Assembly: GCA_000004695.1 (NCBI GenBank)
Contig: CM000154.2
Span: forward strand, 4,256,001 to 4,320,000
Origin: Dictyostelium discoideum
Lineage: Eukaryota
Direction of reading: 5' to 3'
DNA length: 64,000 nucleotides
Part shown: positions 26,520-47,635 of the stretch, piece after piece
Layout of the letters: each line of letters opens with the position of its first letter
How positions within the stretch are numbered: the first letter of the stretch is position 1
Program-made: the position numbers and the translations under genes
The notes under the pieces: generated by a model
The model's input: the letters and a program-made list of their open reading frames with translations, nothing else
Databases searched by the model: none
What the model was told of the DNA's origin: nothing

Positions 26520-27702
26520 ATTTTAATTTCTGGTTTCATTGATTGGAATATTTTGGGTATTGATCCTTCAATTAGTGGTGTATTCATTTTCCTAATGTTA
26601 ATTGCTTTATTGACTTAGTACAGTAGTATAATTTTGTATTATTCTATATTTCAATTTTTTTTAATAATTTCTACAGATTTATCTAATTTACAAATATCTA
26701 ATGATTGATTGAAACTTCTTTGTAAAATAATTTTTGGTATATTTTTGGGTATTGATCCTTCTATTAGTTAGATCAAAGAAATGGTACCTGATATATCTCA
26801 ACTTTAAAACTCTGACACTTGAGGGAATAATACCTGGTTCTAATGATTGGGAAAATCCATCACAAACATAAAAAATATTTACAGAATTGGGGATTGAACC
26901 AATCTTTAATGGCTTTTTAATGTCGTGTAGAAATAAATATTGAACACTCGAAGGAATAATACCAGCTTCAATTAATTGACTAAATCCATCATAAAATGAT
27001 AACCACCAAACACTTGATGGTATTGATCCTTTTACTAATGGTGTTTTAATATCACATATCTCTAAATATTTAATACCAAGTGGTAATACACCTGGTTCTA
27101 AACTTTCTTTAAATCCATCTAATAATATTACATGCTTAATATTTTTATTTGATTTGAGTTTTAATAAACTACCACAATCTTCTCCAAGTGCAATTCTATA
27201 ATTATCTTTTGGTAATTCACTGTTCTCTGAATATATATAATACTTTTCTCCAGTACCAAATTCTATTTTAAATTAAAATGTTAAAATAATTTTTTTATTT
27301 AAATAAATACTTGTTATTAAACATACTCTTTATAAATTTATAATTATTTTCATCAATTTCAATCTTAAATTTTTTACTATTATTATTACTATTATTATTA
27401 ATAAGTTCATATATTAATTTTAAGTTATTTTTTATATCATTAATTTTTTGATTATTGAATTTAATGATTTGATTATTATAATTTTTTAATTTATTTTGAT
27501 TATTGATATTTATATTATTTTTTAATAACAATAATGATTGTTGATATTGTTTAATTAGTTCAATTGTATCAGTACCTTTATGATAACCAATTATATCTTC
27601 ATCACCATAATCGATATCATCATAATTTTGTTGAATATTATTAATATTTTTTATTGAAATATTGAGTTTATCGATCATTGAGATATTATTATTTTTACTA
27701 TG

Positions 27703-27737
<35 letters not shown>

Positions 27738-28176
27738 CATTATTGATTGAAGAGGTTATATTTGCATTTTTTGATGAGTTTTCTTGGAATCCTGTTTCTA
27801 ATTGTTTTTCGATATCTAATTCAAGTATTGAGAGTATGTGATGAAGTTTTTTAAATTCTTCTTTGAGTAATTTTTTATTTTCATCATTTTGTGATTGAAT
27901 TTCATTGAAAATTTCATTGGAATCTTTTAATGTTTGTTTATTATTTCCAATTCTTTCAAGTAATTTTGGATAAACATCATCTTTAAAATTATTCATCATT
28001 GAAAGAATGTTTGATGTTGATATTGGTTCTAATCCGTGACGATGATGAGAACCATTAATGGATGTACATAAAATACAACATGGTATTAATTTACAATCTA
28101 AACATAAAAGTTCCAAATTTTTACTTGGATGAATTGAACATTTTTTATTTTTATTATTATTATTATTATTATTATA

Positions 28177-28224
<48 letters not shown>

Positions 28225-28281
28225 TGCTAATGATATCATAATATAAATTAAAAAGGTGTGATAATTTTTTCTATTATTCAA
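26520..28281 (-). pseudogene. Copy C: the B-box/coiled-coil exon is intact (328 aa, 28281-27326), but the FNIP exon is internally deleted and frameshifted.
   Basis: Exon 1 ORF 27295-28281 has the full finger [39 protein letters not shown]. Intron donor GTATGT, acceptor at 27263-64. The FNIP exon keeps about 4 repeats, then a deletion junction throws the last repeat and the tail out of frame. The 3'-end segment is duplicated at 26540-26640 and 26650-26780. Confidence 0.5.
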
Positions 28282-28324
28282 ATGAAGCTACTATTGGTTT
28301 TATGATGTTAAAAAAAACAAAAAA

Positions 28325-28356
<32 letters not shown>

Positions 28357-28700
28357 TAAAATTTCTTAAATCTTTTGAGTGTTTGTTTTTAAATTTGTAA
28401 TCTTCTCACACCCACACTCAGACATACCCACACCCTCAATTATTTTTTTATTAATAGAAATAATAAAAATTAATTAACAGTAACTTATTTAAATGTTAAA
28501 AAAAAAAGTTCCAAATACAATCAAATCCATAACATTTTGATACTCAATTTTTATTTATTTTATTTTATTTTATTTTTTTATTTTCCAAAAATATTTAATA
28601 TTTGGATAATAAAGTTCATTTAATTTCTAATGGTTTTGTTGATTAGAATAAAAAAAAAAAAACATAATATTGTAATATAATTTTTTATTATTCTATATTT

Positions 28701-30073
28701 CTAAATTAATTTAATAATTTTTACAGATTTATCTAATTTACAAATATCTAATGATTGATTAAAACTACTTTGTAAAATAACTTTTGGTATATTTTTGGGT
28801 ATTGATCCTTCAATTAGTGGTGTATCCATTATTCCTAATGTTAATTCCTTTATTGAATTTGGAATGATTCCTGGTGTTAGTTGATGTTTGAATCCTTCAT
28901 AAATACTGAGATAGGTTACAGAATTTGGTATTGAATTTACTTCTAATGATTGTTTAGTATCATATAAATATAAGAATTTCACTCCATCACTAATTATACC
29001 TGGTGTTATTAATTGATCAAAACCATTACAGAAATAAATTAGTGACTGATTTAGGAATTGATCCAGCAACTAATGGTACTTTAATATAAAAGAACCACAA
29101 ATATTTTACACTTTCTGGTATAATACCTGGTGAGAGTAATTGGCTAAAACCATTATTAAATGAAATGGATTCAACTGAATTAGGAATTGACCCAATTTGT
29201 AAATTTAAATTAATTTCATAACAAAAGTTTAATGATTTAACACCATTTGGAATAATACCTGGTTCTAGTGATTGAGAAAATCTATGAAGAAATATCAATG
29301 TTTTAACTGTTTTAGGAATTGAACCAATCTTTAATTCACTTTTAATATTATTTAAACTTAACTCTAGTATACATTCGGGTATCAAAGAAATGGTACCTAT
29401 TGATAATGGTTGATTAAATCTATTTTCTAAACAAAGATGAAAAACAGTATTTGGAATTGATCCAATCTCTAATGAATGTTTGATATCCCCTAAGTTTAAA
29501 GAACTGACTTTTGAGGGAATAATACCTGGTTCTAATGATTGGGAAAATCCATCACAAACATGCAAATGAGTTACAGAAATAGGAATTGAACCAATCTTTA
29601 ATGGCTTTTTAATGTCGTGTAGATACAAATATTTAACACTATAAGGAATAATACCAGCCTCAATTAATTGACTAAATCCATCATGAAATGATAACCAAAC
29701 AACACTTGATGGTATTGATCCTTTTACTAATGGTGTTTTAATATCACATATCTAAATATTCAATACCGAGTGGTAGTACACCTGGTTCTAAACTTTCTTT
29801 AAATCCATCTAATAATATTACATGCCTAATATTTTTATTTGATTTAAGTTTTAATAAACTACCACAATCTTCTCCAAGTGCAATTTTATCATTATCTTTT
29901 TGCAATTCACTGTTCTTTGAATATAATACTTTTCACCACTACTAATATCTATTTTTAAAATAAAATGTTAAAATACTTTTATTTTTTACATATATACTTG
30001 TAATTAAACATACTCTCTATAAATTTATAATTATTTTCATCAATTTCAATCTTAAATTTTTCATTTAATTTAC

Positions 30074-30128
<55 letters not shown>

Positions 30129-30197
30129 GTTGTTATTGTTTGTTAATGATATCATAATATAAATTAAAAAGGTGTGATAATTTTTTCTGTTGCTCAA
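28701..30197 (-). pseudogene. Copy D: B-box exon reduced to 72 aa by internal deletion; FNIP exon frameshifted.
   Basis: ORF 29979-30197 joins the N-terminus ([23 protein letters not shown]...) directly to the C-terminal tail ([31 protein letters not shown]), omitting the finger and coiled coil. The FNIP region is split into ORFs 28701-29069 and 29026-29628 and others. Confidence 0.5.
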
Positions 30198-30925
30198 AGG
30201 AAGTTATGGTTTTATGATGTGAAAAAAAAAAAGAAAAAATGTTAAAAAAAAAAATAAAAAAAAAAAAAAATTATTTTTTTCAACCTTAAATTAAGTGTTT
30301 GCTTTTAAATTTGTAATCTACTCAGGCACCCATAATTTAATTATTTTTACAACTTAATTTTTTTTAATAATCATAAAAATAGAAAAAAAAAAAAAAAAAA
30401 AAAACAAATTAGCAACATCAAACATTAATCAATACACAACAATTTTTATTTTTACACATTAAATTTTACCTATATTATTTCTATATCTCAGATTATTTGA
30501 TTTTTATCATCAAATTTAATTTTTTTTTTTTTTTTTTTTTGATGAATTAAATTTCATTAATTTAGTCATATCCAAATATAATTTTATTTTTATATTCTTA
30601 AATAATTTATTAGAATAAAAAAAGATTTTTTCTTTTTTTTTTTTTGAAAGATATTTATGGTTATAATAAAATAAAAAAAATGATAAATTAATTCGTCACC
30701 AAAAAAAAAAATGGTGTGTTCTTTTCGAATCGGGCTTTTTTTTATTTTTTTTTAATTTTTTTTTTTTTTTTTTATTATTTTTACTTTCCCACTTTTCATA
30801 TTTAAACTAAAAAAAATCAAAAAATGTAAAATTAAAGTATTTATCTTTTTAATATTAAAAACAATAACAATATATATAAATTAATAAATAAGTTACTCAA
30901 TATTAAATTATTATTATTATTATTA

Positions 30926-30969
<44 letters not shown>

Positions 30970-30972
30970 GGA

Positions 30973-31945
30973 ATGTCACAAAATGATAAGAAAGTTTTTT
31001 ATATTACTGGTGCAAGTAAAGGATTTGGTTTAGAATTAACCAATCAATTACTTGAGAGAGGATTTAATGTTGTGGCAACTTCAAGAAATAAACAACAATT
31101 ATCAAATAGTGTGAATAATAAATTTGTTACAAATGATAACTTTTTAGCATTACAAGTTGATCTCACATCCAATGAATCAGTAAAGAATTCAATTGATGAA
31201 ACAATCTCAAAATTCACTCGTATTGATGTTATCATTAATAATGCAGGTTATTCACAATGTGGTACAATTGAAGAATTAACAGATAAAGAAATTAGAGATA
31301 ACTTTGAATGTAATGTTTTCGGTGTTATCTCTGTAATTCGTAATGCACTTCCACATTTACGTATAAATAAGTTTTTTGCAAATGGGCCTAGAATAATTAA
31401 CATTTCATCAATTGCTGGATTTACAGGATCATTTCCAGGATTTAGTATTTATTCATCAACTAAATTCGCATTGGAAGGTTTAACAGAAGGTTTGAATGAA
31501 GATTTGAAAGAGTTTGGTATACATGCATCAACTGTATTACCAGGTTATTTTAGAACATCATTTTTAGAGAAAGGTTCAGTGGCAGTTCCATCACATCCAA
31601 TTAAAGAATATACAGCAGTTAGAAAAATTCAAGAAATTCATGAAAATCAAATTAATGGTAATCAACAAGGTGATCCTGTAAAAGGTTGTAAAGTTATCAT
31701 TGATCATGCATTATCTGAAAATCCAACAACTCATCTTTTCTTAGGTCCAGACTCAATGAAATATGCTCAATCCAAAATTGAAGCAATTCAAAATGATATC
31801 AAATCAAATTATGTATGTTTTTTTTTTTTTTTTTTATTTCATTAATAATTCTTTATTTAAATCATAATATTAATATTAAAATTTTTATCATTATTGTTGA
31901 ACATAAATTTAGGATGCAGCTTCTAAAACTGATTTCACAAATTAA
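30973..31945 (+). CDS. Classical short-chain dehydrogenase/reductase (SDR).
   Basis: Exon 1 is 30973-31812 (TGASKGFG Rossmann motif, NNAG, catalytic YSSTK), followed by GTATGT and a T-run. Putative terminal micro-exon 31913-31945 (DAASKTDFTN-stop) after the acceptor at 31911-12. The micro-exon sequence is conserved in captured fragments at 34841 and 38582. Confidence 0.6.
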
Positions 31946-31983
31946 TTTAATAAATAAAAATAAAAAAAAAAGTACAATTTACT

Positions 31984-32019
<36 letters not shown>

Positions 32020-32134
32020 TAAAGTAATTTCTAAATCACCAATGGTTGTTTTATATGATCTTTTATTATTAAAATCTTAAATATTATTCAAATTAAAATT
32101 TGGTACAATTTATTTTTTATTTTAAATTTTTCTT

Positions 32135-32171
<37 letters not shown>

Positions 32172-32391
32172 GTAAATAAAAAAAAAAATACAAAAAAACT
32201 TAAACAATTAAAATCAAGATGTCATCAATTAATTTATGATCATGAAAAAGATAAGGATTAATTAAGAGCTGGTATTAATTTGGTTAAAATTAATTGTTAA
32301 AGCTAAAGAATTGTTTTCTCAAAAAAAAAAAAATCTATTTAAAAAATGAAAAACTAAATAGAGTAATGTGTTTTTTATTATTACTATTTTT

Positions 32392-33636
32392 CTAATTTTG
32401 TTTGATAATTTCCACAGATTTATCTAATTTACAAATATCTAATGATAGATTGAAACTTCTTTGTAAAATAATTTTTGGTATATTTTTGGGTATAGATCCT
32501 TCAATTAGTGGTGTATTCATTATTCCTAATTTTAATTGCTTTATTGAATTTGGAATGATTCCTGGTGTTAGTTGATGTTTGAATCCTTGATAAATACTGA
32601 GATTTGTTACAGAATTCGGCATTGAAATTACTTCTAATGATTGTTTAGTATCATATAAATATAAGAATTTCACTCCATCACTAATTATACCTGGTGTTAT
32701 TAATTGATCGAAACCATTACACAAATATAAATTAGTGACTGATTTAGGAATTGATCCGACAATTAATGGTGATTTAATATTACAGAACCATAAATATTTT
32801 ACACTTTCTGGTATAATACCTGGTGAGAGTAATTGGTTAAAACCACTATTGAACCAAATGGATTCAACTGAATTTGGAATTGAACCAATCTTTATTTCAC
32901 TTTTAATATTATTTAAACTTAACTCTTGTATACCTTCAGGTATCAAAGAAATGGTACCGATTGATAATGGTTGATTAAGTCCATCTTCTAAACAAAGATA
33001 TTCAACAGTTTTTGGAATTGATCCAATCTCCAATGAATGTTTGATATCTCCTAAATTTAAAGATCTGACCCCTGAGGGTATAATACCTGTTTTTAATGAT
33101 TGGGAAAATCCATCACAAACATACAAACTTTTTACAGAAATAGGAATCGAACCAATCTTTAATGGCTTTTTAATGTCGTGTAGACATAAATATTCGACAC
33201 TATAAGGAATAACACCAGCTTCAATTGATTGACTAAATCCATCATAAAAAGTTAACCGCCTAACACTCGATGGTATTGATCCTTTTACTAATGGTGTTTT
33301 AATATCACATATCTCTAAATATTTAATACCAAGTGGTAATACATGTGGTTCTAAACTTTCTTTGAATCCATCTAATAATATTACATGCTTAATATTTTCA
33401 TTTGATTTAAGTTTTAATAAACTACCACAATCTTCTCCAAGTGCAACTTTATCATTATCTTTTGGTAATTCAATGTTCTCTGAATATATATAATACTTTT
33501 CACCAATACCAAATTCTATTTTTAAAATTAAAATGTTAATATACTTTTATTATTTACATATATACTTGTAATTAAACATACTCTCTATAAATTTATAATT
33601 ATTTTCATCAATTTCAATCTTAAATTTTTCATTTAG

Positions 33637-33717
<81 letters not shown>

Positions 33718-34442
33718 AAGTTCATATATTAATTTTAAATTATATTTAATATCATCAATTATCTGGTTATCGAATTTAATGATTTGATTATTATATTCTT
33801 TTAATTTATTTTGATTATTGATATTTATATTATTTTTTAATAATAATAATGATTGTTGATATTGTTTGATTAGCTGAATTGTATCAGTACCTTTATGATA
33901 ACCAATAATATCTTCATCACCATAATCATAATCATCATAATTTTGTTGAACATTATTAATATTTTTTATGGAATTATTTAATTTATCAATCATTGAGTTA
34001 TTATTATTATTGTTATTATCATTATCGATTGAAGAGGTAATAGTTGTATTTATTAATGTATTTTCTTGGAATACTGTTTCTAATTGTTTTTCGATGTCTA
34101 ATTAAAGTATTGAGAGTATGTGATGAAGTTTTTTAAATTCATCTTTAAGTAATTTTTTATTTTCATCATTTTGTGATTGAATTTCATTGAAAATTTCATT
34201 GGAATCTTTTAATGTTTGTTTATTATTTCCAATTCTTTCAAGTAATTTTGGATAAACATCATCTTTAAAATTATTCATCATTGAAATAATGTTTGATGTT
34301 GATATTGGTTCTAATCCATGACGATGATGAGAACCATTACTGGATGCACATAAAATACAACATGGTATTAATTTACAATCTAAACATAAAAGTTCAACAT
34401 TTTTACTTGGATGAATTGAACATTTTTTATTATTATCATTAC

Positions 34443-34495
<53 letters not shown>

Positions 34496-34563
34496 TTATT
34501 ATTATTTGCTAATGACATCATAATATAAATTAAAAAGGTGTGATAATTTTTTCTATTGTTCAA
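32392..34563 (-). pseudogene. Copy E: full-length B-box/FNIP paralog inactivated by one nonsense codon in exon 1.
   Basis: Exon 1 is 34563-33592, intron 33591-33516, exon 2 33515-32392 with an open FNIP frame. The minus-sense TAA at 34104-34102 corresponds to the GAA (Glu) in ...[16 protein letters not shown]... of the intact copies. This splits exon 1 into ORFs 34102-34563 and 33550-33993. Confidence 0.55.
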
Positions 34564-36029
34564 ATGAAGTTATTATTGGTTTTTGGTGGTAAAAAAAAAT
34601 AAAAAAAAAATAAAAAAAAATTATTTCCAAAATCTTTAAGTTTTTATTAAAAAAAATTTAAAAAATTAATTTAAAAATAGAAAATGATTAAAAAAAGTGG
34701 TCGTAAACAACAATTTTTTACATTTTTATTATCTTTTTTCATATTATGTATAATGTGCCTTTGATTATTACAAATAATTTATTAGAATTAATTCATTCTT
34801 TTTTCTTTTTTTTTTTTTATGGTTAACCTAAATAAATTTAGGATGCAGCTTCTATAACTGGTTTCACTGATTTTTAATAAAAAAAAAAAAAAAGATGTAC
34901 AATTAAAATATTAATTTCATGATAATGTTTTTTGGAAATTAATTTTTTTTTTTTTTTTTTTTTTTATTACATTATCATGAAATTGTTGAATTTGAAGATG
35001 ATATATATCTTAGTTCTTCTTTTAAAGTGTAAACTTCACGTTTTAAAGTGGAAACTTCATTATTTAATTTATTGTTTTCATCCAATAGCGATTTATATTA
35101 ATTTTGATTTGGTAATTGATCTCTTAAACCATAAAAACATAAAAAACTTGGTATACATCCATCCAAAATATGATTTTTTATATCAGAAAAGTGTTTACCT
35201 TTTGGAAAAAAAAAAATGAAAAATAAAATTAAAAAAAAAAATGAAAATTTTTTTTTTTTTTTTTTTTTTGGTCATTTTTAATAAAATTTAAGGGAGTCAC
35301 TTTGCATGTAAATTATTGTTTAAAAAAAAAAAAAAAATTTTCAAAAAAAAAAAAAACATTTTTTCTAATAATATTTAAGGGAGTCGCTTTAAAAAAAAAA
35401 ATAAAAAAAAAAAAAAAGGCGAAATTTTTAGACCCAACCACCTTAGTAATATTAAAAAAAAAAAATATCTGATTGGTGCAATTATAATTAATTAACTCTA
35501 GTAAAGAGTAATGATTTTTTTTAATTTTTTTCTTTTATTTTTATTTTATTTTATTTTATTTTTTAATAAATAATTAATAGAAATAAAAAAAAAAAATACA
35601 AAAAAAAAAAAAAAAATAATAAAAATGGATGAAGCGCCAGCAATTAAAATTTTAGATAATATAATAAACTCAACAACATTGATGTAGTACTATTGATGTA
35701 AGAATTGAAAAAAAAGATTAAGAAATTAAACAAGAAACTTTACAATTAAAATCGTTTCAATTGAAGAAGAGATTAAAAACTCAAACAATTAAAATCAAGA
35801 TGTCAACAATTAATTGATGATTATGAACAAGATAAAGATTTAATAAGTGTTGGTATTAATTTAGTTGATGAATTAAATGTTGGGGCTATTCTCAAAATGG
35901 TTTTAAAATTGAGAATTTGTTAATTAATTATTATTTTAATTAAAACAATAAAAAAAAAAAAAAAAAAAAATCAATTTAAAAAAATAAAAACTTAATACAG
36001 TAATATAATTATTTATTACTATTATTCTA

Positions 36030-37280
36030 TTATAATTTAATAATTTCTACAGATTTATCTAATTTACAAATATCTAATGATTGATCAAAATTATATTGTA
36101 AAATAATTTTTGGAATATTTTTGGGTATTGATCCTTCAATTAGTGGTGCATTCATTTTTCCTAAATTTAATTGCTTTATTGAATTTGGAATGATTCCTGG
36201 TGTTAGTTGATGTTTGAATCCTTCACAAATACTGAGATTTGTTACAGAATTTGGTATTGAATTCACTTCTAATGAAATAGTATCACATAATTGTAAGAAT
36301 TTCACTCCATCACTAATTATACCTGGTGTTATTAATTGATCGAAACCATTATAGAAATTTAATTCAGTGACTGATTTAGGAATTGATCCAACAACTAATG
36401 GTACTTTAATATTATAGAAGAATAAGGATTTAACACTATCTGGTATAATACCTGGTGAGAGTAATTGGTTAAAACCATCATTAAACTGAATGGATTCAAC
36501 TGATTTAGGAAGTGATCCAATCTTTAATTCACTTTTAATATTATTTAAACCTAACGATTGTATACCTTCAGGTATCAAAGAAATGGTACCGATTGATAAT
36601 GGTTGATTAAATCCATTTCCTAAATTTAGATGAGCAACAGTTTTTGGAATTGATCCAATCTCTAATGAGCGTTTGATATCTCTTAAAATTAAAGATCCGA
36701 CCCTTGAGGGAATAATACCTGGTTCTAGTGATTGGGAAAATCCATCACAAACATGCAATTGAGCTACAGAATTAGGAATTGAACCAATCTTTAATGGCTT
36801 TTTAATGTCGTGTAGATATAACCATATAAAACTCGAAGGAATAATACCAGCCTCAATTGATTGATTAAATCCATCATGAAATGATAACCGCCTAACACTT
36901 GATGGTATTGATCCTTTAACTAATGGTGTTTTAATATCACATATATCTAAATATTCAATACCAAGTGGTAATACACCTGGTTCTAAACTTTCTTTAAATC
37001 CATCTAATAATATTACATCCTTTAAATTTTTATTTGATTTAAGTTTTAATAAACTACCACAATCTTCTCCAAGTGCAATTTTATAATTATAAATATCTTT
37101 TGGTAATTCACTGTCCTCTGAATATATATAATATTTTTCACTAGTACCAATTTCTATTTTTAAATTAAAATGTTAATATACTTTTATTATTTACATATAT
37201 ATACTTGTAATTAAACATACTTTTTATAAATTTATAATTATTTTCATCAATTTCAATCTTAAATTTTTCATTTAATTTAC

Positions 37281-37353
<73 letters not shown>

Positions 37354-37659
37354 ATTATTATTCTTATCATTATTATTAATAAGTTCATAAATTAGTTTTA
37401 AATTATTTTTAATACCATCAATTGTTTGATTATCGAATTTAATTATTTGATTATTATATTCTTTTAATTTATTTCGATTATTGATATTAATATTATTTTT
37501 TAATAACAATAATGATTGTTGATATTGTTTAATTAGTTGAATTGTATCAGTATCTTTATGATAACCATTAATATCTTCATCACCACAATCGTAATCATCG
37601 TAATTTTGTTGAATATTATTAATATTCTTAATTGAATTATTTAATTTATCAATCATTGA

Positions 37660-37743
<84 letters not shown>

Positions 37744-38295
37744 ATTATTATTATTATTATTATAATTATTATTACTAATATTTTTATTATAATTACTATT
37801 ATCATTATCATTATCATTATCGATTGAAGAGGTAATAGTTGCATTTATTAATGTATTTTCTTGGAATACCGTTTCTAATTGTTTTTCAATATCTAATTCA
37901 AGTATTGAGAGTATGTGGTGAAGTTTTTTAAATTCATCTTTGAGTAATTTTTTATTTTCATCATTTTGTGATTGAATTTCATTGAAAATTTCATTGGAAT
38001 CTTTTAATGTTTGTTTATTATCTCCAAATCTTTCAAGTAATTTTGGACAAATATCATCTTTAAAATTATTCATCATTGAAAGAATGTTTGATGTTGATAT
38101 TGGTTCTAATCGATGACGATGATGAGAACCATTACTTGATGTACATAAAATACAACATGGCATTAATTTACAATCTAAACATAAAAGTTTCACACTTTTA
38201 CTTGGATGGATTGAACATTTTTTATTATTATTATTATTTATTAATGACATCATAATATAAATTAAAAAGGTGTGATAATTTTTTCTATTGTTCAA
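36030..38295 (-). CDS. Copy F: intact B-box zinc finger / coiled-coil / double poly-Asn / FNIP-repeat protein.
   Basis: Exon 1 is 38295-37221 (376-aa ORF with finger [39 protein letters not shown] and two (AAT)n tracts of 40+ Asn). Donor GTATGT. Intron 37220-37154. Exon 2 is 37153-36030 with a continuous FNIP-repeat frame. Confidence 0.6.
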
Positions 38296-38465
38296 ATGAA
38301 GTTATTATTGGTTTTTGTGTTGTAAAAAAAAAATGAAAAAATGAAAAAAAAAAAAAAAAAAAATTTCTTAAATCTTTAAGTGTTTGATTTTAAATTTGTG
38401 ATATAAAATTAAAAGTAATTTTAAAAAAATTAAAAAAGATTATAAATTAATTTATTTTATTCTCA

Positions 38466-38630
38466 GGTCAATGCAATATGCTCAATCTAAAATTGATTCA
38501 AAATGATATCAAATCAATTATGTGTTTTTTTTTTTTTCTTTTATTTAAATATCACTATATTAATATTAAAATTTTAATCACCTAAATTAATTTAGGATGC
38601 AGCTTCTAAAACTGATTTACTATTTAATAA
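38466..38630 (+). pseudogene. Captured 3'-end fragment of the SDR gene (last about 20 codons, intron and micro-exon), part of the tandem amplicon.
   Basis: TCAATGCAATATGCTCAATCTAAAATTGATTCAAAATGATATCAAATCAATTATGTGTTTTTT and TTAATTTAGGATGCAGCTTCTAAAACTGATTT match 31750-31945. A third copy is at 34841-34885. Confidence 0.5.
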
Positions 38631-39575
38631 TAAAAAAAATGTTTTAAGGGTAATTTCTAAATCACTAATGGTTGTTTCATATGGTCTTTTATTAAAATTA
38701 ACATTGGTGCACTTTTGTTGGAATTTTTTTTTTTTTCACCTTTTGACTATATATTTTTAATATCTAATTGATACTATTTTTAAAAAAAAAATTAGCAAAA
38801 AATAAAAAAAAGTTAATTAATTAAATCAAAGAAAAAGTCAAAATTTGTATTTTTTTTTCTTAATTTTTATTCAAAAAATTTATTTTTCACTTAATTTTTT
38901 TTTATTTTTTTATTTTTTTTTTTTTTAATACAAATAAAAAAATAATAAAAATGGACGATGCATTATATTTGATTTTTTTAATTTTTAATACCAACATATT
39001 TAAAACTGGATTATATATATATATCGTTAAATCTTCAAGTGGAATTCGTAAAAAAATTAATATCTTAAGTCTTTAAGCGGGATTCACAAAAAAAAAAAAA
39101 AAGTGAATCCCACACCAAAAAATTGTTGTTTGACCCAATTGTATGAGTTATTTGATGTTTTAAAACACAAAGAAATGAAACAATTAAAATCAATTCAAGA
39201 AGAAAATGAAAAATCAATCCTTGCTCAAGGTGGAAATATCAATTTAATGGAAAAATTTTAAAATCAAATATAAATCAAAATAGATTCTCATAATTTATAA
39301 CTAAAACTTAAACAATTCAACAATTAATTAATGATTCTTAACAAGATATAGGTTTATTAAGTGATGGTATTAATTTAGTTGATAAAAAAAAATGCTGGAG
39401 CTAAAGAATGGTTTAAATCAATTGATTTTTAATTAATAATTAAAACAATAAAAATAAAAATAAAAATAAAAAATAAAAATAAAAATTTTATTTAAATTAT
39501 TTATTTATTTATTTAATTTAATTTAATTTAATTTATTTGAATATAATTTTTGATGTGTAATTAATTATTACAAAA

Positions 39576-40810
39576 TTACATATCAAAACCAAAGCTTAAA
39601 CCAAAAATTGTAGTTTGGCCAATTGTATGAGTGAATAAACATTGAAGTGCACCACTTTGAGTTATTTGATGTTTTAAACCAATTTCTAATTGCCATTTTG
39701 TACCATACAATTTACTAATTCTTCTAATACCAAATTCAGTTGCAGAAGTTACATGAACGATCTTATAATGAATAGTTTCAAAGAATCTTGATCCTCTGGT
39801 AATTCTATTTTTATAATCAAATAAAAATGGTAATCCTAATATTGGTGGTCTATTATCATCATTATTATTACTATTATTACTATTATTACTAATAGCTGAT
39901 GGTGATGACGATGATGATAATGATTCATTTAAATTATTATTTACACTCATACTTCTACTAAATGAATTTGATTCATTATCACTATTTAAAACTTTATTAC
40001 TAAAATAATGATCAGAGAAATAACGTGACATATCACCTAAACGTGAAGTGATTTCTAATGATGATAAGAATGTATTCTTACCGAATTGAAAGAACATATG
40101 GTGTTTTAAAACTATACGATTTGATTTCTTGTTGATTGGGATATCAAATTTTAACCAACCATATCTACCGAAATAAGTGAATTTTGGATTTATAAATGGT
40201 GATACTATCATACGACTAAATGAATGAACTCTAACACCAACTGCACCGCCAACTTGGAAAACACTTGCAAAATTACGTTTATAGATACTATATATGTTTG
40301 GTATAACAATACCAATATCACCCTCCCTTGATCCACGTGGTGTTTCATACCATGATATTGAGGTTTTAATAGGTGGTGGTGAATGTAATGATGATCTACT
40401 AATATTGTTGCTATTACCAACGCCACCGTAAAACCCATTAACTTGTTTTTCATATGTTACTTTTAATCTACTATCTAATGATCTAGCTGAAACTCTTAAT
40501 CCATCAAATAATGTATATTGTAAACATCCGAATATGCTACCTATATTATTTGTTGATGCTTGAAATAATTTAAATTTTGATGGTATATTTACTGGATCCA
40601 TTAAAGTATCCCTTGAAATATCAATTGGTAATCTTTTATTTAAATTATAATTATTATTATTATTGTGTTGTTTATTTGTAGTAGTATTATTATTACTATT
40701 ATTGTTATTACTACCACCACTATGTGTGGTTGATGTTATATTATTATTATTACTATTTTGATTATTTACATTTGATTTAATATTACTACTATTTAAATTA
40801 TTTATATTAC

Positions 40811-40844
<34 letters not shown>

Positions 40845-40919
40845 GTTATTTGTATTTGTATTACTATTATTTATATTATTTTCATTTGACTCGGTATGTG
40901 TAAAAAGTTTTTCGCTCAT
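39576..40919 (-). CDS. Asn-rich hypothetical protein, possibly a beta-barrel-like membrane protein (C-terminus ...TIFGLSFGFDM).
   Basis: 447-aa ORF with a CA-rich 5' leader. The N-terminal 100 aa is poly-N/S/T low complexity. The remainder has alternating hydrophobic patterns and a C-terminal aromatic motif reminiscent of mitochondrial outer-membrane barrels (Mdm10/Sam50-like); this assignment is speculative. Confidence 0.4.
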
Positions 40920-41132
40920 CTCGATCTATTTTCTGCTTTTCTTGTGTTTGTGTTGCGTTTGTGTTTGTTTGTGTTGTGTGTTTATGAACGTATTTATGTT
41001 TTATTATTATTTTTTTTTTTTTTTTGTAAATCAAAGTATACTTGTTGAATTAAAAAAAAAATTAATTTAAAAATTTCAAAAATAAAAAAAAAATAAAAAA
41101 AAATAAAAAAAAATAAAATTATATATTAGAAT

Positions 41133-41356
41133 GGCTTGACATAGGTTTTGACCATTAAGAAAAAAAAAATAAAAAAATAAAAAAAATAGATAAACACAAT
41201 ATATGTAGATTTATAAATCACACCCAAATTTATTATTTTTATTTTTTACCTTTTTTTTTATAAATATTCCCACACCCTTACTATTTTTTTTTTTTTTTTT
41301 TTTTTTATTTTTTTTTTTTTTATTTTTTTAATAGTCAAAACCTATGTCTAGCCATT
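41133..41356. repeat. MITE-like element: about 225 bp bounded by 20-bp terminal inverted repeats.
   Basis: Left arm GGCTTGACATAGGTTTTGAC (41139-41158); right arm GTCAAAACCTATGTCTAGCC (41334-41353), i.e. the reverse complement with one mismatch. AT-rich interior containing CCCACACCC. Confidence 0.4.
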
Positions 41357-42484
41357 ATTTTTTTTTTAGTTTAATTCAAATCTAGACTTTTAAATTTTAA
41401 TAGTTATAATAATTCTCAAAATATTAATATGTCTAAAATTAAACAAAATTGAATATGATAAAATAAATTTTTTTTTTTTTTTTTTTTAATGACTAAATTT
41501 TATTCTTAATATAAAGTTTTTGGAATTTAAGAATAAAATTATTAATATACCATGATTTGAGAATGGATTCTTATTTTAGGGAATCAAATTCTGAAAAAAA
41601 AAAAAAAGATTATTGGTTTAATAAAAAAGAATTTATTTTAAATTTGAAATGGAGAAAAAAAAAAGGTGAGATTGGCAGGAGATAGAACCTAGGTGAGGAC
41701 AGCAAAACGGAACAGGAACAAAAATATTGGATTTAATAAATGGTAGTAAATCCAATATTTTTTAGTGAAATTGGTATTGTTTGATATATAAATTTATTTT
41801 ATTTTACATATTTAGATTATTTTTCTTGAAATCTTGGTTAATGGTCAATTTGAGGTTCACCAATTTTCATTTTTACAAGAACTTCATCTTGACCTTTGAT
41901 AACATGACCTATATGATGAAAAAAATAAAAAAAAAATAAAAAAATTATAAAAAAATAAAAAAAAAGTAATAATTACAGTTTTTGATACTTAGTTTAATTT
42001 ACCTATTTTGATTATATAAAATTTTAAAAATATAATAATGGTTTTAAAAAATGATGTCAAAAAAAAAATATATATATAAATTTATTTCCATATTTAGTTT
42101 TTTGTTTAATTATTTTATTTTATTTTTTTTTAATTTTTAAATAAGGATTAATCAAAGTTTTGGTGTGAAAAAAAAAAAAAAAAAAAACTATATTAAATCT
42201 ATCTAATTCACACAAAAGTATATCGATTTATATATCTCAATTCATTAAATAAATTCTTATATTGAAAATTATAATTGATCTTTTATCAATTATTTTTAAA
42301 ACATGATTAATTAAAAATTACTTATCACACACACCATTTAAAAATTAAAAAAATAAAAAAAAAAAAATAAAAAATAAAAAAATAAAAAAACTATTATTAT
42401 AAAATTTTTTGATTCTGATTGTGCTATATTTAAACAAAATCAAATAATTTAGTATTTTTTTATAAGAAAAAAAAAAAAAAAAGA

Positions 42485-42515
<31 letters not shown>

Positions 42516-42762
42516 GACCAGATTATTTGAAAAACTCCTAGTATTGAAAAAAAAAAAAAAAATAAAAAAAAAAAAATAAAAAAAATGTATTTTTGGTATT
42601 TTATGTGTGGTTGATTGCAAGTGAAAGTATTTTTATCTTCATCTGTTTGATAACTAATCATATAATTATTTTTTTTTTTTGGAAAAAAAAAAATAAAATT
42701 ATAAAAAAAAAAAAATAAAAATATTTCCACCCACACACACGTTAACGATTTGAGAGAAAAAA

Positions 42763-42813
<51 letters not shown>

Positions 42814-43543
42814 TTTTGTTCTTTTTTTTTTTTTTTTATATTGTGACAAGTGTTTTAACTGTTTTTCAATATAAAAAAAAAAAAAAAATAAAAAAAAATA
42901 AAAAAAATAAAAAAATCAAAAATTTTCTCTTAACAACCAACCCAATCAAATTTTTGGTTTTTCCATAATAAAAAAAACATTTTTTTCATTTTTTTTTTTT
43001 TTTTCATTTTTTTTTATCATATAAATTTTTTTTTTTCTTTTTTTTTATTTCCATTTTTTTTATCGCCTCACTTTTTATTTTGGAATTATATTTTCTCTTT
43101 ATTTCTTTTCTATATATAGATAAATTTTTTTTAGAAAAACTAAAAAAAAAACCTCAAACAATTAATACAAGTATGTAAAAAAAGAATTTAAGAAACTTTA
43201 TAAGAAAAAAAAAAAAAAAAAAAAAACAAATAAAAATAAAAATTTTTTGAAAAAATAAAAATAAAAAAATAATCACGATGAAATAATTTTTTTTTTTCAA
43301 AATAAATAAATCTAAAAATTCAATTAATCAATCAAATAAATTAATCAAATAAATCAATCAATCAATCAATCGAATAAATAAATTTATTAATCAATCAACC
43401 AATCAATAAAATAATAAATAAATTGAATAATGAATCATCCTTCAAGAAATTGAATGAGAAAGAAAAAAAAAAAAAAAAAAAATATTAATACCTTTATTCC
43501 ATTTTTTTTAAAATTTTAATTTTTTTTTTTTTTTTCCTTTAGA

Positions 43544-45062
43544 ATGGTAAACATTGGTGGAACTCAAGAAAAATGTACTGCATGTGCTAAAACTGTATAC
43601 TTAACAGAAAAGATTGTAGTTGAAGATAAAGAAGATAAGAAAACTTTCCACAAATTATGTTTAAAATGTACTCACTGTAAGCTTACATTAAGTCTTGGTA
43701 ACTATGCATCATTAAATGGTGTATTCTATTGTAAACCACATTTCAAACAATTATTCGCCACCAAAGGTAACTACGATGAAGGTTTCGGTAAATCAAAACA
43801 TTCTGAAAAATGGACACCACAAGCCACCCCAACTGGTACTTGTAAGTTTAAAATTTTAAATATAATTAAATATATATAAAAAAAAAAAAAAATTAATAAT
43901 AATAATCTAACTTTTTTATTTTATTTTTTTATTTTTAAAAGCTTCATTCATTCCAGTTGAAGAATCAAAATCATCAGAAAAGAAAGAAACACCAACAACA
44001 ATTTCATCAAAATTCTCAGGATCAACTGAAAAATGTAATCTCTGTAATAAGACAGTATATTTAACAGAAAAGATTGTTGTTGAAGATAAAGAAGATAAGA
44101 AAGTATTACATAAACAATGTTTGAAATGTACACATTGTAGTGTTGTATTAAATCTTGGTACCTATGCATCAATGAAAGGTGTATTCTATTGTAAACCACA
44201 TTTCAAACAATTATTCGCCACCAAAGGTAACTATGATGAAAGTTTTGGTAACAACAAAGCCACCGATAAATGGGCACCACAAACCAACACTGCACCAGCT
44301 TCATTCGTTCCATTAGAAAAGACTGCAACCACTGAAAAGAATACCAACCAATCATCAAACCCAGATATTGCCAAGAAATTCTCAACTGGTAGTTCAGAGA
44401 AATGTCACGATTGTCAAAAATCAGTTTACCTCACAGAGAAAGTCGTACTTGAGGAATTGGAAAACAAGAGAATCTTCCACAAGGCTTGTTTGAAATGTAG
44501 TAAATGTTCAGTCATTCTCACCTTGGGTACTTTGGTTCAATTGGATGGTGTTATCTATTGTAAACCACACTTTAAAGAACTCTATGCCACTCAAGGTAAT
44601 TTAGATGGTGGTTTCGGTAAACCAAAACACTCTGAAAAATGGGAAAATAACCCATTCCCATATTTAGAAAAGGATAGCAGTTATGTACCATCCGTTGAAA
44701 AGGTTGAATCTCAAATGAATAATGCTTCATCTGAATCTGATGTTGATAGATTTAAAAATATTAACAATGATGATTCTGATAAACCAAGAAGACAACAACA
44801 ACCAGTTTCTCAACCAGAAGAAGAACAACAACAACAAGAAGAAGAAAAAGTTGAAGAACCAATCTCTGAAGAAGAAGAAAAAGTTGAAGAAAAAGTTGAA
44901 GAACCAGTCGCTGAACAAGAAGAAGAAAAGGTTGAGGAACCAGTTGTTGCTGAAGAAGAAAAAGTTGAAGAACCAGTTACTGAAGAAGAAAAAGTTGAAG
45001 AACCAGTCGTTGCCTCTGAAGAACCAGTTGAAGAAGAAACAAAAGCTGAAGAAGAAAACTAA
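43544..45062 (+). CDS. LIM-domain protein of the cysteine-rich-protein (CRP) type with three LIM domains and a C-terminal acidic tandem-repeat tail.
   Basis: Exons 43544-43841 and 43942-45062 (GTAAGT donor at 43842, acceptor at 43940-41, phase 1). Three units of CxxC-x17-HxxC-x2-CxxC...[19 protein letters not shown]. The tail carries about 8 copies of EEKVEEPV encoded by a 24-nt periodicity (44845-45040). Confidence 0.65.
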
Positions 45063-45493
45063 ACTTAAATTTCTCAACGCAAATAATTTTCAACATAAAA
45101 AAAAAAAACAAAGAAATATATAAAAAAAAAAAAAAAAAATAAGAAAATTGTATAAATTATCACAATACCAAAAAAAAAAAAAAAAAAAAGAAAAATGTAA
45201 TTGTAACAACAAATAAAATTATTTATATAAAAAAAAAAAAAAAATAATAATTTATATATTTATAAAAAAAAAAAAAAAAAAAAATTTATTGTTTAATTCT
45301 TTTTTTTTTAATAATTTGTGATTAAAAATACAGGTTTGATTAAATGTTTATTTGTATAAAAAAAAGATAAAAAAAAAATATTATCTAATCAGTTTTTTTT
45401 TTTTTTTTTTTTTTCCTATAAATTTATTATTTAATTATTTTATCGATATTAAAGTATAAAAATATAAAGTAATGAATTATAAATAAATATTAT

Positions 45494-46722
45494 TTATAAT
45501 TCAAGACTTGTATCACCTGGACAATTTGTATCAATAGTTTCAATGATATTAGCATATGATTGCCAGAGTGATTTATTAATGAAACAAGCTGAACCACCAC
45601 CTCTTTTAAATTGAGTAAACATTCTATTTACATCACCAATGCAAATATAATAATCAGCTTCATGAATTGAAAGAGCATATTTACTATGATCTTTTGTATA
45701 TTTCCAATTAACTGTACCCTCGGTTGGATCATCAAATGAAAATGTTAATGTATTAATACTATCATATGTAAAATTACCACCTGAACAATATGTTGGCATC
45801 TAATAATAATAAATAAATAAATAAATAAATATAATTATGTTAATTTTATTATTATTATTATTTTTAATTTAATGTTTTTTTTTTAAAATTTTATACATAC
45901 AACTGAAGCTTTTGAACCTAAACGCCATGAAGTTACAACCATATTTTGTTTAAGAGTTGATTGAATTAAATCTTCATAAAGATCTTTATCCCATGCAGCA
46001 TTTTTAGCGAAAACTTGGAAAGAATTACCACCGATTGAAGTGAGGATGGTTGAATCAGTACGTGGTGAATCATCAAATTCACCTTTAATAGTTTGTTGAA
46101 TTAAAGATAATTGTGGAAGATTAATTTTTGATGGTAAATTATAAGCATAGATGAATGGTCTATTTATAAAGATTTTATTGGCAATATCAGCAAAACTACT
46201 TGAAGCTTTATAAGTTACACATAAAAATGATTGACCATTGTTTACTTCATTCTTTGGGAAATAATAATCTTCATGATTTGGATCATGTGGGAAACGAGGT
46301 ACTGAATGAATTAACCAAAATCCTTGAGTGCTATCAAATGCAACGACACCTTTACTATGAGCATACTCTGAATCGGCTTCGTCGGTTGGTGGTTGATCAT
46401 TATACATAAACCATGCTAAATCATTGCTTTCCTTATTTGAATAAATTAAATTCAATGTATGTGATAATGAATTTGTATCATTTAATGTGTTTGTTGGGAT
46501 TTTCCATGTAGGATTCTTTGAATCTGCATATAAATAACCTAAACCTAATTTATATTTTGTATCTGCTGGCATCGATGATACAACTGGTTGCTTTTGAATT
46601 ACCCACCAATCAACACTTTCACCTTGATCATTTAAACATTCAATAGTTGTTGATTTTAATCCATCAATTGAATTTATTAATATAATTACAATTATTAATA
46701 ATAATAAAATTAATTTATTCAT
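45494..46722 (-). CDS. Deoxyribonuclease II (acid DNase) family protein, secreted or lysosomal.
   Basis: Exons 46722-45901 and 45799-45494 (minus-sense donor GTATGT, acceptor at 45801-00). Signal peptide MNKLILLLLIIVIILINSIDG. Both DNase II HxK motifs are present: FWLIHSVPRFP...HSK and DHSKYALS. Confidence 0.6.
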
Positions 46723-46818
46723 CTCTTTTTTTTTCTTTTTTTTTTTCTACCTGGAAATATGATTTAAAAAAAAAAAAAAAAAAAAAAATTCTAAAAATAA
46801 ATTTTATGTAATAAAAAA

Positions 46819-46850
<32 letters not shown>

Positions 46851-47635
46851 TAAAAGGGAGATAAAAAAAAAAAAAAAAAGAAATATAAAAATTAATATGT
46901 GTTTAGAAAATGTATAAAAAAAAAAAAAAAAAAAAAAAACCACTTTTTTTTTGATCACACTAAAATATTTTGTGATGGTTTCATACTTTTTTTTTATTTT
47001 TTTATTTTATTACACAGGCAACGTTTGTTGGCTTGGACAAAAAAAAAAAATCAGCAAAACTACTAACAACCGGTTATGCCGAAGAAATTTTAAAAAAATA
47101 AAATTTTATTTTTTTTTGTTTGAAAATTAATTAATGATTTTTTTTTTTTGGCCAAACATCAGCCCTTGTCCAAAAATGAAACCTCTTTTGAAAAATTTGA
47201 TGTGTACAAAAAAAAAAAAAAGATTATTATATTATTACTATTTACAATAAAATTATTTTGAATAAAAAGAAAAAAAAAAAATCTTTGATTTTTGTGAAAG
47301 TTTGAACTAGAATAAAATAAAAAAAATAAAAAAATAAAGATAATTAATTTATAATAAAAAAAAAAATTTAAAATTTTAAAAAAAAAAAAAACAAAATAAA
47401 AAAAATTATAAAAAACAGATATTAATTTTAAGTTCTATTATATTTTTTAAAAATAAAAAATAAAATAAAATAAATAAAAAATTAGTAATAGTTTTATAAA
47501 GTGAGAATGTCATTTTCAGATTTTTTTTTTTTTTTTATTTTTCTGAATTTTTTTTTTATTTTTTTTTTTACCTTTTATTTTTTTTTTTTTTTTTTAGTTA
47601 ATGATTTTTTTTGATCAAAATAAAAAAAAAAAAAA

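Follow-up and report, generated by a model that had tools for sequence, protein, structure and literature searches.

Degenerate SDR tails in a tandem B-box/FNIP array of Dictyostelium discoideum: putative deletion relics of whole duplicated genes

Two degenerate copies of the 3' end of an SDR gene, termed s2 and s3 here, lie among tandem B-box/FNIP paralogs in the window analysed in this work, a stretch of 64,000 nucleotides of Dictyostelium discoideum AX4 sequence. Judged from sequence comparison, these tails are fairly probably deletion relics, that is, unprocessed pseudogenes, of complete duplicated SDR genes. The array that contains them can be read as three units, each composed of a B-box/FNIP paralog, its upstream region, SDR, a spacer and a 255-aa gene (gene C), and is followed by gene X. 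In AX4, the units are represented as D-S-c1, E-s2-C2 and F-s3-C3, and tail, spacer, C fragments and paralogs recur in one constant order.

The SDR gene and its tail copies

The parent gene, the two relics and the associated spacers are located as follows.

30331-30972, no strand: intergenic region between paralog D and SDR, which are divergent; a T19 run at 30523-30541 ends the homology with the region upstream of E
30973-31812, plus strand: SDR exon 1, 280 codons (translation, exact Q54FW2 match, Pfam PF00106 at 156 bits)
31813-31912, plus strand: SDR intron, 100 nt, phase 0, opening with GTATGT and then T18, and ending in TTTAG
31913-31945, plus strand: SDR terminal micro-exon, DAASKTDFTN plus stop; with 31740-31912 it forms tail copy s1
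32016-32217, plus strand: SDR 3' spacer copy 1, 70.6% identical to 38641-38829 over 204 bp (E 3e-13)
~34808-34917, plus strand: s2, SDR tail relic comprising ~25-30 nt from the 3' end of the intron, then the micro-exon, then ~30 nt of 3' UTR
~38452-38642, plus strand: s3, SDR tail relic with the last ~20 codons of exon 1, the intron and a partial micro-exon
38641-38829, plus strand: SDR 3' spacer copy 3, which matches copy 1 and in D. cf. discoideum precedes gene C as well (L002, 6881-7002)

By translation and protein comparison, the spliced SDR product is 290 aa long and identical to AX4 XP_635655.1/Q54FW2, so that the gene model proposed from the sequence alone, with its GTATGT intron and terminal micro-exon, is right. 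The protein scores 156.2 bits against PF00106 (cut-off 26.6) and is a full-length classical SDR with a conserved C-terminus; its alignment extends to the final residues of bacterial and dictyostelid homologues. Because the residues encoded by the micro-exon have aligned counterparts at the C-termini of these homologues, the sequence common to the tails is SDR-derived.

The window was compared with itself by BLAST under DUST masking. Positions 31753-31959 match 38468-38639 (75% over 207 columns, E 2e-34), 31882-31979 match 34808-34904 (80% over 101 columns, E 5e-17), and the two relics match each other at 34826-34886 and 38580-38639 (87% over 61 columns, E 1e-12). The fragments reported at both sites by the sequence-only reading are thus real, all three matches being longer than the 40 bp that it had set as its limit for refutation. 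Its sites were right, whereas its ranges were slightly narrower than those listed above, and it had correctly noted that the fragments are repeated together with the paralogs, 5' of E and F (minus strand), and that more than the tail is repeated, as the spacer match at 38641-38829 confirms. A 30-nt core comprising the intron acceptor and micro-exon, AATTTAGGATGCAGCTTCTAAAACTGATTT, occurs at 31906, at 34835 (2 mismatches) and at 38589 (0 mismatches); it was found in none of 100 dinucleotide-preserving shuffles, versus three times in the window.

Both relics keep their elements in the parental order: s3 retains the exon end, intron, micro-exon and spacer, and s2 the 3' end of the intron, the micro-exon and UTR. 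The coding capacity of both is disabled. In s3, the frame of the exon part is broken by 7-, 5- and 1-nt deletions, the GTATGT donor is mutated, the intron is shortened, and the micro-exon runs for 23 nt before a 9-nt deletion that takes out the stop; s2 is entirely without exon 1. A tblastn search found no further SDR coding sequence in the window. Parental intron and non-coding flanks are kept in both relics, as in unprocessed pseudogenes. A processed (retro-copied) pseudogene, which would lack the intron and carry poly-A at the mRNA 3' end, is excluded by the intron sequence in both. Nor are the copies an assembly artefact, since all three tails are unaltered in a second AX4 assembly made independently (L004), which is 99.76% identical over 21 kb and differs almost only in gap length.

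Layout of the array and its junctions

The remaining elements of the array are listed below.

28647-30330, minus strand: paralog D with its proximal upstream region, degenerate B-box/FNIP, unit 1 (self-BLAST, broken ORFs, 3'-flank alignment)
32194-32324, plus strand: c1, relic covering aa 212-248 near the 3' end of gene C (tblastn with the C protein of strain L005; alignments)
32392-34521, minus strand: paralog E, with B-box, coiled coil and FNIP repeats (translation, start motif)
34522-34818, no strand: E upstream region, homologous to the D upstream region and the D-SDR intergenic region as far as the T-run, then jumping to s2
35625-35930, plus strand: C2, gene C pseudogene interrupted by stops and an internal deletion, matching aa 1-43 and 206-242 (tblastn, BLAST to D. 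citrinum C)
36030-38253, minus strand: paralog F, apparently intact, two exons, donor at ~37220, intron of ~67 nt
38254-38446, no strand: F upstream region, matching the E upstream region at 34486-34694, then joined directly to s3
38953-39430, plus strand: C3, gene C pseudogene, aa 150-237, with stops, in the ancestral position beside X (tblastn, D. citrinum collinearity)
39576-40919, minus strand: gene X, 447 aa, the ancestral right-hand neighbour, which closes the array

Paralog F scores 187.6 bits for FNIP (PF05725), above the Pfam cut-off, in 8 repeat stretches; for zf-B_box (PF00643) it scores 22.9 bits, just below the cut-off of 24.1, with the Cys/His pattern visible in the translation. 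Exon 1 of paralog E has a premature TAA near 34100, and this copy is probably a pseudogene. Gene C (255 aa) is intact in relatives, and tblastn finds only the fragments c1, C2 and C3 in AX4. Neither gene C nor gene X matches a Pfam family above threshold.

The ancestral order can be read from the outgroups. D. citrinum and D. dimigraforme share the order T-S1-S2-C-X-LIM-DNaseII, where S1 and S2 are tandem SDR genes, and have no paralog between SDR and X. AX4 39162-41193, comprising the 3' half of C3 and X, is collinear with D. citrinum C-X in a continuous alignment, and 42168-47481 aligns with D. citrinum LIM and DNase II. On these grounds, the adjacency of C3 and X is ancestral. In D. firmibasis no C gene is called, yet tblastn detects sequence resembling C in the interval from the second SDR to X.

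The junction between C and the following paralog is common to E and F. In particular, c1 adjoins the E 3' flank at a junction designated J1, and self-BLAST shows continuous homology across c1/E and C2/F (32194-34025 with 35775-37688). Copies A and D, in contrast, keep another, original paralog 3' flank, which in D is not a gene C fragment. Since the C/X adjacency is ancestral, the C/paralog junction is the new one; since it is new, the ends of the unit fall in two A-runs, one 3' of the paralog and one 3' of C, and the whole of SDR would lie inside the unit. The array accordingly has a single novel junction, ancestral flanks and a whole number of units, as is characteristic of amplification in whole paralog-SDR-C units.

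The junctions between paralog upstream regions and tails are of another kind. The E upstream region runs to 34818, which corresponds to ~30554 of the D-SDR intergenic region at the end of the T-run, and there meets SDR at ~31882; the F upstream region stops at 38446 and meets SDR at ~31740. These junctions of units 2 and 3 differ on both sides. Had both units inherited one primary junction, it should be the same in each, so that the difference argues against a primary breakpoint inside SDR. This breakpoint had been the central proposal of the sequence-only reading, and it is not supported in view of the unlike junctions, the ancestral C/X adjacency and the near-complete SDR copies in D. cf. 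discoideum described below. The same applies to the minimum unit that had been proposed, consisting of SDR tail, spacer and paralog: much of that spacer is in fact gene C fragments c1, C2 and C3, and the unit would have spanned the whole SDR.

Related lineages and the origin of the relics

The comparison assemblies apparently derive from PMC12745789. The D. cf. discoideum array shows the same interleaving, with SDR copies that cover aa 9-280, 7-280, 64-269, 9-78 plus 134-280, 58-128, and 9-72. At L001 9700-11521 of that species, an E-like paralog upstream region is found with the SDR 5' flank (30621 onward), SDR and the tail, and the whole-SDR units have the C/paralog junction too. A tail-only relic (L003 14969-15023) has the SDR-3'UTR/c junction exactly as in the full-length unit; since relic and full-length unit have one and the same junction, decay of a whole copy can leave nothing but the tail.

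Paralog, SDR and C were co-amplified, each lineage has kept a different subset, and the number of paralog copies ranges from 0 to >13 between close relatives. Neither tail was found in L005 and L006, two diverged strains of the discoideum clade. L005 is without precisely the ~110 bp between two T-runs that bear s2 in AX4, and next to X it has only the 3' flank of C left; its E upstream region (13469-13976) matches window positions 30070-30554 (73.6% over 530 bp, E 2e-74). At the s3 position, D. cf. discoideum has kept the spacer, and the tail is absent.

In the history that we favour, the ancestor of the discoideum clade would have had the order paralog (minus), SDR (plus), spacer, C (plus) and X (minus). 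J1 would have arisen by a tandem duplication that linked two A-runs, one immediately 3' of C and the other immediately 3' of the paralog, and a third copy would have been added through unequal crossing-over between units. The outcome would be three units, each with a paralog, its upstream region, a complete SDR, spacer and C, and X after the last of them. Only the first SDR would have retained its function, and independent deletions would have removed the promoter and exon 1, together with some of the intron, from the redundant copies 2 and 3; in unit 2, the deletion probably had its ends in two T-runs, the one at 30523-30541 and the one at the start of the intron. The C copies and several paralogs would have decayed in parallel; deletional decay is common in these units (c1, C2 and C3), in addition to the stop codon in E.

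Note that no SDR 5' flank or exon 1 is demonstrable between the AX4 paralog upstream regions and the tails, and for this reason we infer the full-length stage of the AX4 copies rather than see it in that genome; the homopolymer-mediated mechanism is inferred as well. The AX4 s2 and the tail-less L005 allele have a common left edge, the T-run at 34818, which needs either recurrent deletion at this T-run or a second deletion starting exactly there.

An alternative, which we regard as unlikely, is the model of the sequence-only reading itself, in which the amplified segment never had the SDR head. Duplication or template switching with a breakpoint in exon 1 near 31740 would have produced units of tail, spacer, C, paralog and upstream region, and later trimming would have made the junctions unlike. 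This agrees with the presence of only 3' ends in AX4 and with the sharp edge at which s3 starts within exon 1. However, with C/X ancestral, it needs two novel junctions at once (C/paralog and upstream/tail), and two extra deletions, each abutting a junction, for the unlike edges of s2 and s3. It also leaves unexplained why a paralog with its original 3' flank stands first in the array and C-X last, making exactly three paralog-SDR-C units. Moreover, it implies that no related unit has the 5' part of SDR, whereas in the sister lineage D. cf. discoideum whole SDR copies, with their 5' flank, lie in units with the same C/paralog junction. In neighbour-joining trees, the SDR copies and paralogs of D. 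cf. discoideum cluster with the main copies of that species, which allows its whole-SDR units to be an independent event; on this sequence evidence they may have been amplified independently or restored from the functional SDR by gene conversion. It is possible that a complex one-step event made both upstream/tail junctions.

Neighbour-joining trees, one for the N-terminal block of the paralogs and one for SDR exon 1, were also considered for dating the duplications and set aside. Copies, including the ancient S1 and S2, cluster by species, and as a result of this concerted evolution the trees are uninformative on timing.

Still less likely is that s3 is the remnant of the ancestral second SDR, S2, left in place beside C-X while insertion or duplication placed paralog material between S1 and S2, with s2 as a secondary copy. 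The outgroups indeed have two tandem SDRs with S2 directly upstream of C-X, the block s3-spacer-C3-X holds the position of outgroup S2, and the exon part of s3 is about equidistant from D. citrinum S1 and S2; its comparison with outgroup S1 and S2 gave 77% identity to each over 70 nt, an alignment too short to be decisive. Against this, the functional AX4 SDR is S1-like (90% and 87% identical to D. citrinum S1 and S2, respectively) and yet is followed by the same spacer and a fragment of C, so that the downstream setting of "S2" is present there as well. In addition, s3 and the AX4 SDR agree at every position of the 30-nt acceptor/micro-exon core. The test of s3 against S1 and S2 is blurred because the SDR copies evolve in concert.

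Chance similarity of AT-rich, low-complexity Dictyostelium sequence, which the ~20% G+C of the window and the hundreds of spurious matches under permissive scoring might suggest, is refuted by the masked E-values, the shuffles and the conserved order of elements, and its probability is negligible. A search for faint SDR 5' remnants with blastn at +1/-1 and word size 7 was swamped by such AT-rich noise; default scoring with DUST was used.

Wider meaning and related systems

The relics provide a readable record of how the cluster grew, with genes travelling together and junctions in homopolymer runs, and they show that redundant copies were deleted at different places in different strains. They are useful for pseudogene annotation of the AX4 reference (E, c1, C2, C3, s2 and s3), and they reveal that the laboratory strain has lost a conserved 255-aa gene, gene C, that wild relatives retain. 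No description of this array turned up in the literature searched or among the terms looked for in PMC12745789.

It is conceivable, as a long shot, that the B-box/coiled-coil/FNIP (LRR-like) genes form a fast-evolving, TRIM-like recognition or defence cluster. If so, unequal exchange would drag along and destroy neighbours such as the SDR copies and gene C, and the locus would be a second hypervariable one in Dictyostelium, comparable to the tgr region. The tgr allorecognition clusters (PMC12745789) belong to the same clade and are covered by the same set of new assemblies; there, too, copies are gained and lost quickly, pseudogenes are numerous and the copies show signs of having converted one another. 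They differ in that they encode TIG-repeat Tgr proteins, whereas the genes here are of the B-box/FNIP type and are described from their sequence; a term search of PMC12745789 gave no mention of FNIP genes.

Among known families, paralog F resembles the FNIP/FGxxFN leucine-rich-repeat proteins (PF05725), structures of which are treated in PMC9525666, with its 8 FNIP matches; this likeness is a trait of the amplified gene and not of the SDR relics. The parent SDR resembles the classical SDRs (PF00106), and the motifs TGxxxGxG, NNAG and YxxxK are visible in its translation. In contrast, s2 and s3, with at most ~30 degenerate codons, cannot encode an SDR.

The closest comparison is with unprocessed pseudogene fragments that arise by tandem segmental duplication and unequal crossing-over. 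As in such fragments, the intron and flanks are kept in register with the repeated unit, and frame-breaking indels and a lost splice donor are found beside one functional parent. The history of the array is one of ordinary tandem-duplication decay, involving no new mechanism and no new type of element. There is no difference in kind from these known cases; what is specific here is that three neighbouring genes were amplified together.

The SDR gene and its tail relics

G+C content is about 20% across the window. A separate, independent assembly of AX4, the strain of the window, agrees with it at 99.76% identity over 21 kb, the differences being one mismatch and eight gaps totalling 50 positions. 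The short-chain dehydrogenase (SDR) gene at 30973-31945 (+) is spliced as 30973-31812 plus 31913-31945, giving a 290-aa product that is 100% identical to AX4 XP_635655.1/Q54FW2 and has a Pfam PF00106 score of 156 bits. The residues that its micro-exon contributes to the C-terminus align with the C-termini of dictyostelid and bacterial SDRs. Its best non-Dictyostelium homologues are Bacteroidota SDRs (51-54% identity, 98-100% of the length), and it could be of bacterial origin via horizontal transfer. An extra intron of about 100 nt near CDS position 398 is present in the SDR genes of D. citrinum (L007 10398-10502), D. firmibasis and D. dimigraforme and missing from every copy in D. discoideum and D. 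cf. discoideum (window 31370 region), a distribution suggesting that the discoideum clade lost this intron.

In a DUST-masked BLAST of the window against itself, 31753-31959 matches 38468-38639 (75%, 207 columns, E = 2e-34), 31882-31979 matches 34808-34904 (80%, 101 columns, E = 5e-17), and 34826-34886 matches 38580-38639 (87%, 61 columns). Allowing up to two mismatches, the 30-nt acceptor/micro-exon core occurs at exactly three sites, and at none in 100 shuffles. The sequence-only reading, that the SDR 3' end recurs as degenerate fragments, is borne out by this search, in which the matches exceed 40 bp after low-complexity masking, and by the multiple alignment, which delimits two relics:

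s3, ~38452-38642: last ~20 exon-1 codons with frame-breaking deletions, damaged donor, intron reduced in length, micro-exon largely retained
s2, ~34808-34917: intron 3' end, micro-exon and ~30 nt of UTR only

Since the micro-exon residues match SDR C-termini elsewhere, descent runs from the SDR to the fragments. A perfect 15-bp inverted repeat (ATTTCATGATAATGT / ACATTATCATGAAAT) flanks a T-run directly 3' of s2 (34916-34980).

Paralogs, gene C and unit order

Each paralog lies on the minus strand, contains a single intron and encodes a B-box-like N-terminus, a coiled coil, poly-Asn tracts and FNIP repeats (PF05725, 187.6 bits); the zf-B_box match, at 22.9 bits, is slightly below the cut-off. 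Self-BLAST places six copies within the window:

16850-19150 (-), paralog A
19212-21040 (-), paralog B
26543-28416 (-), paralog Cc
28647-30330 (-), paralog D
32392-34521 (-), paralog E, with a premature stop
36030-38253 (-), paralog F, apparently intact

Against these six, the locus carries three copies in L005 and three or four in L006 (two diverged discoideum-clade strains), at least 13 in D. cf. discoideum, none in D. citrinum or D. firmibasis, and one, on the opposite strand, in D. dimigraforme. The interval 16429-30665, which holds A, B, Cc, D and a ricin-B-lectin gene (21976-24282), spans ~14 kb in AX4 versus ~1.5 kb in D. citrinum; L005 and L006 have one paralog in its place, collinear with A on the left side and with D on the right. 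An orphan paralog-upstream block lies at 25595-26359.

The SDR 3' spacer is also repeated (32016-32217 and 38641-38829), as is a block directly 3' of the paralogs (32194-32316, 35775-35888 and 39317-39414). The latter is the 3' end of gene C, which encodes a 255-aa coiled-coil-like protein for which no Pfam family was found. Two diverged discoideum-clade strains carry it intact, as do four related species, D. cf. discoideum, D. citrinum and D. dimigraforme among them; AX4 has three pseudogene pieces only:

32214-32322, c1
35625-35930, C2
38953-39430, C3

Because all three copies are fragments, gene C appears to have been lost from the reference strain. The AX4 order is D - SDR - spacer - c1 - E - s2 - C2 - F - s3 - spacer - C3 - X, where X is the right-hand neighbour gene. 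Within C3, at ~39070-39112, there is a hairpin, GGGATTCAC(A)14GTGAATCCC, and by eye the 3' end of X recurs as a short direct repeat in the C3 region (39115-39175 and 39598-39680). The LIM-domain gene region downstream (43568-44642) contains internal repeats of ~260 bp with 83% identity.

Junctions and synteny

In D. citrinum and D. dimigraforme the order is TPP-enzyme gene - S1 - S2 - C - X - LIM - DNase II, S1 and S2 being a tandem SDR pair, and no paralog separates SDR from X; in D. firmibasis C is uncalled, and tblastn detects C-like sequence at the locus. AX4 39162-41193 is continuously collinear with the 3' half of C plus X of D. citrinum, so that the C3|X adjacency is ancestral, and 42168-47481 is collinear with LIM and DNase II. 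Judged from this synteny, s3-spacer-C3 occupies the place of an ancestral SDR-C pair.

The junction of the C 3' flank with the paralog 3' flank (J1) is common to E, F, strain L005 and the D. cf. discoideum units. The 3' flank of A and D differs from the J1 copies and is the original flank, the switch point lying within an A-run. One new junction is what a simple tandem duplication makes; should this be J1, the unit starts immediately 3' of the paralog, takes in the paralog's upstream region, the entire SDR and the spacer, and ends immediately 3' of C, and the AX4 array then consists of exactly three units (D-S-c1, E-s2-C2 and F-s3-C3, S being the SDR), closed by X.

The region upstream of E shares homology with the sequence upstream of D and with the D-SDR intergenic sequence up to 30554, ending in a T19 run, and joins the SDR at ~31882; that of F ends ~120 bp sooner, at 38446, and joins at ~31740. 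Corresponding matches occur in L005 (13469-13976 with window 30070-30554, E = 2e-74) and in L003 of D. cf. discoideum (20300-20626 with window 34474-34818; 20470-20636 with window 30373-30540). The two upstream|tail junctions therefore differ on both sides, which would fit two independent internal deletions and would not fit one duplication junction inherited by both units. As the SDR intron opens with a T18 run, s2 could plausibly have been produced by a deletion between the intergenic T19 run and that run.

L005 and L006 have the order SDR - E - C - F - X and no SDR tail copies; L005 is without precisely the ~110 bp carrying s2, between two T-runs, and beside X retains only the 3' flank of C. 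In the interleaved D. cf. discoideum array, SDR copies cover aa 9-280, 7-280, 64-269, 9-78 plus 134-280, 58-128 and 9-72, and one unit (L001 9700-11521) comprises paralog upstream sequence like that of E, SDR 5' flank, SDR and tail. A tail-only relic (L003 14969-15023) has the SDR-3'UTR|c junction exactly as in the full-length unit, so the tail-only fragment and the whole copy come from one unit in this species. A DDE transposase gene (PF01609/PF13359; L001 6036-7487) lies within this array. An additional SDR copy past X (L002 9918-13231) is fused inside its intron to a paralog, the annotated protein P0010 reading from SDR into the antisense strand of an FNIP gene.

Origin of the array

We consider it rather probable that s2 and s3 are what remains of complete SDR copies made by duplication; an array of three paralog-SDR-C units, since decayed, would account for the repeats. 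SDR copies and paralogs group by species, and the syntenic S1 and S2 of D. citrinum and D. dimigraforme do so against position, which indicates concerted evolution (gene conversion) at the locus. Because of this, the whole D. cf. discoideum copies and the AX4 tails need not descend from the same duplicates, and the former could have been refilled through gene conversion.

A one-step complex rearrangement that made both junctions is possible, and agrees with the finding of no SDR 5' sequence in AX4 units 2 and 3. That a primary breakpoint inside the SDR created the tail copies, as the first reading had proposed, is unlikely and was not upheld, given the two dissimilar junctions. It is more doubtful still that s3 is a remnant of S2, the ancestral second tandem SDR.

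A literature search and a term search within one paper found no account of this array. Decayed units of this kind are a standard outcome of tandem duplication followed by pseudogene decay, and the array is a fresh example of an already known process.
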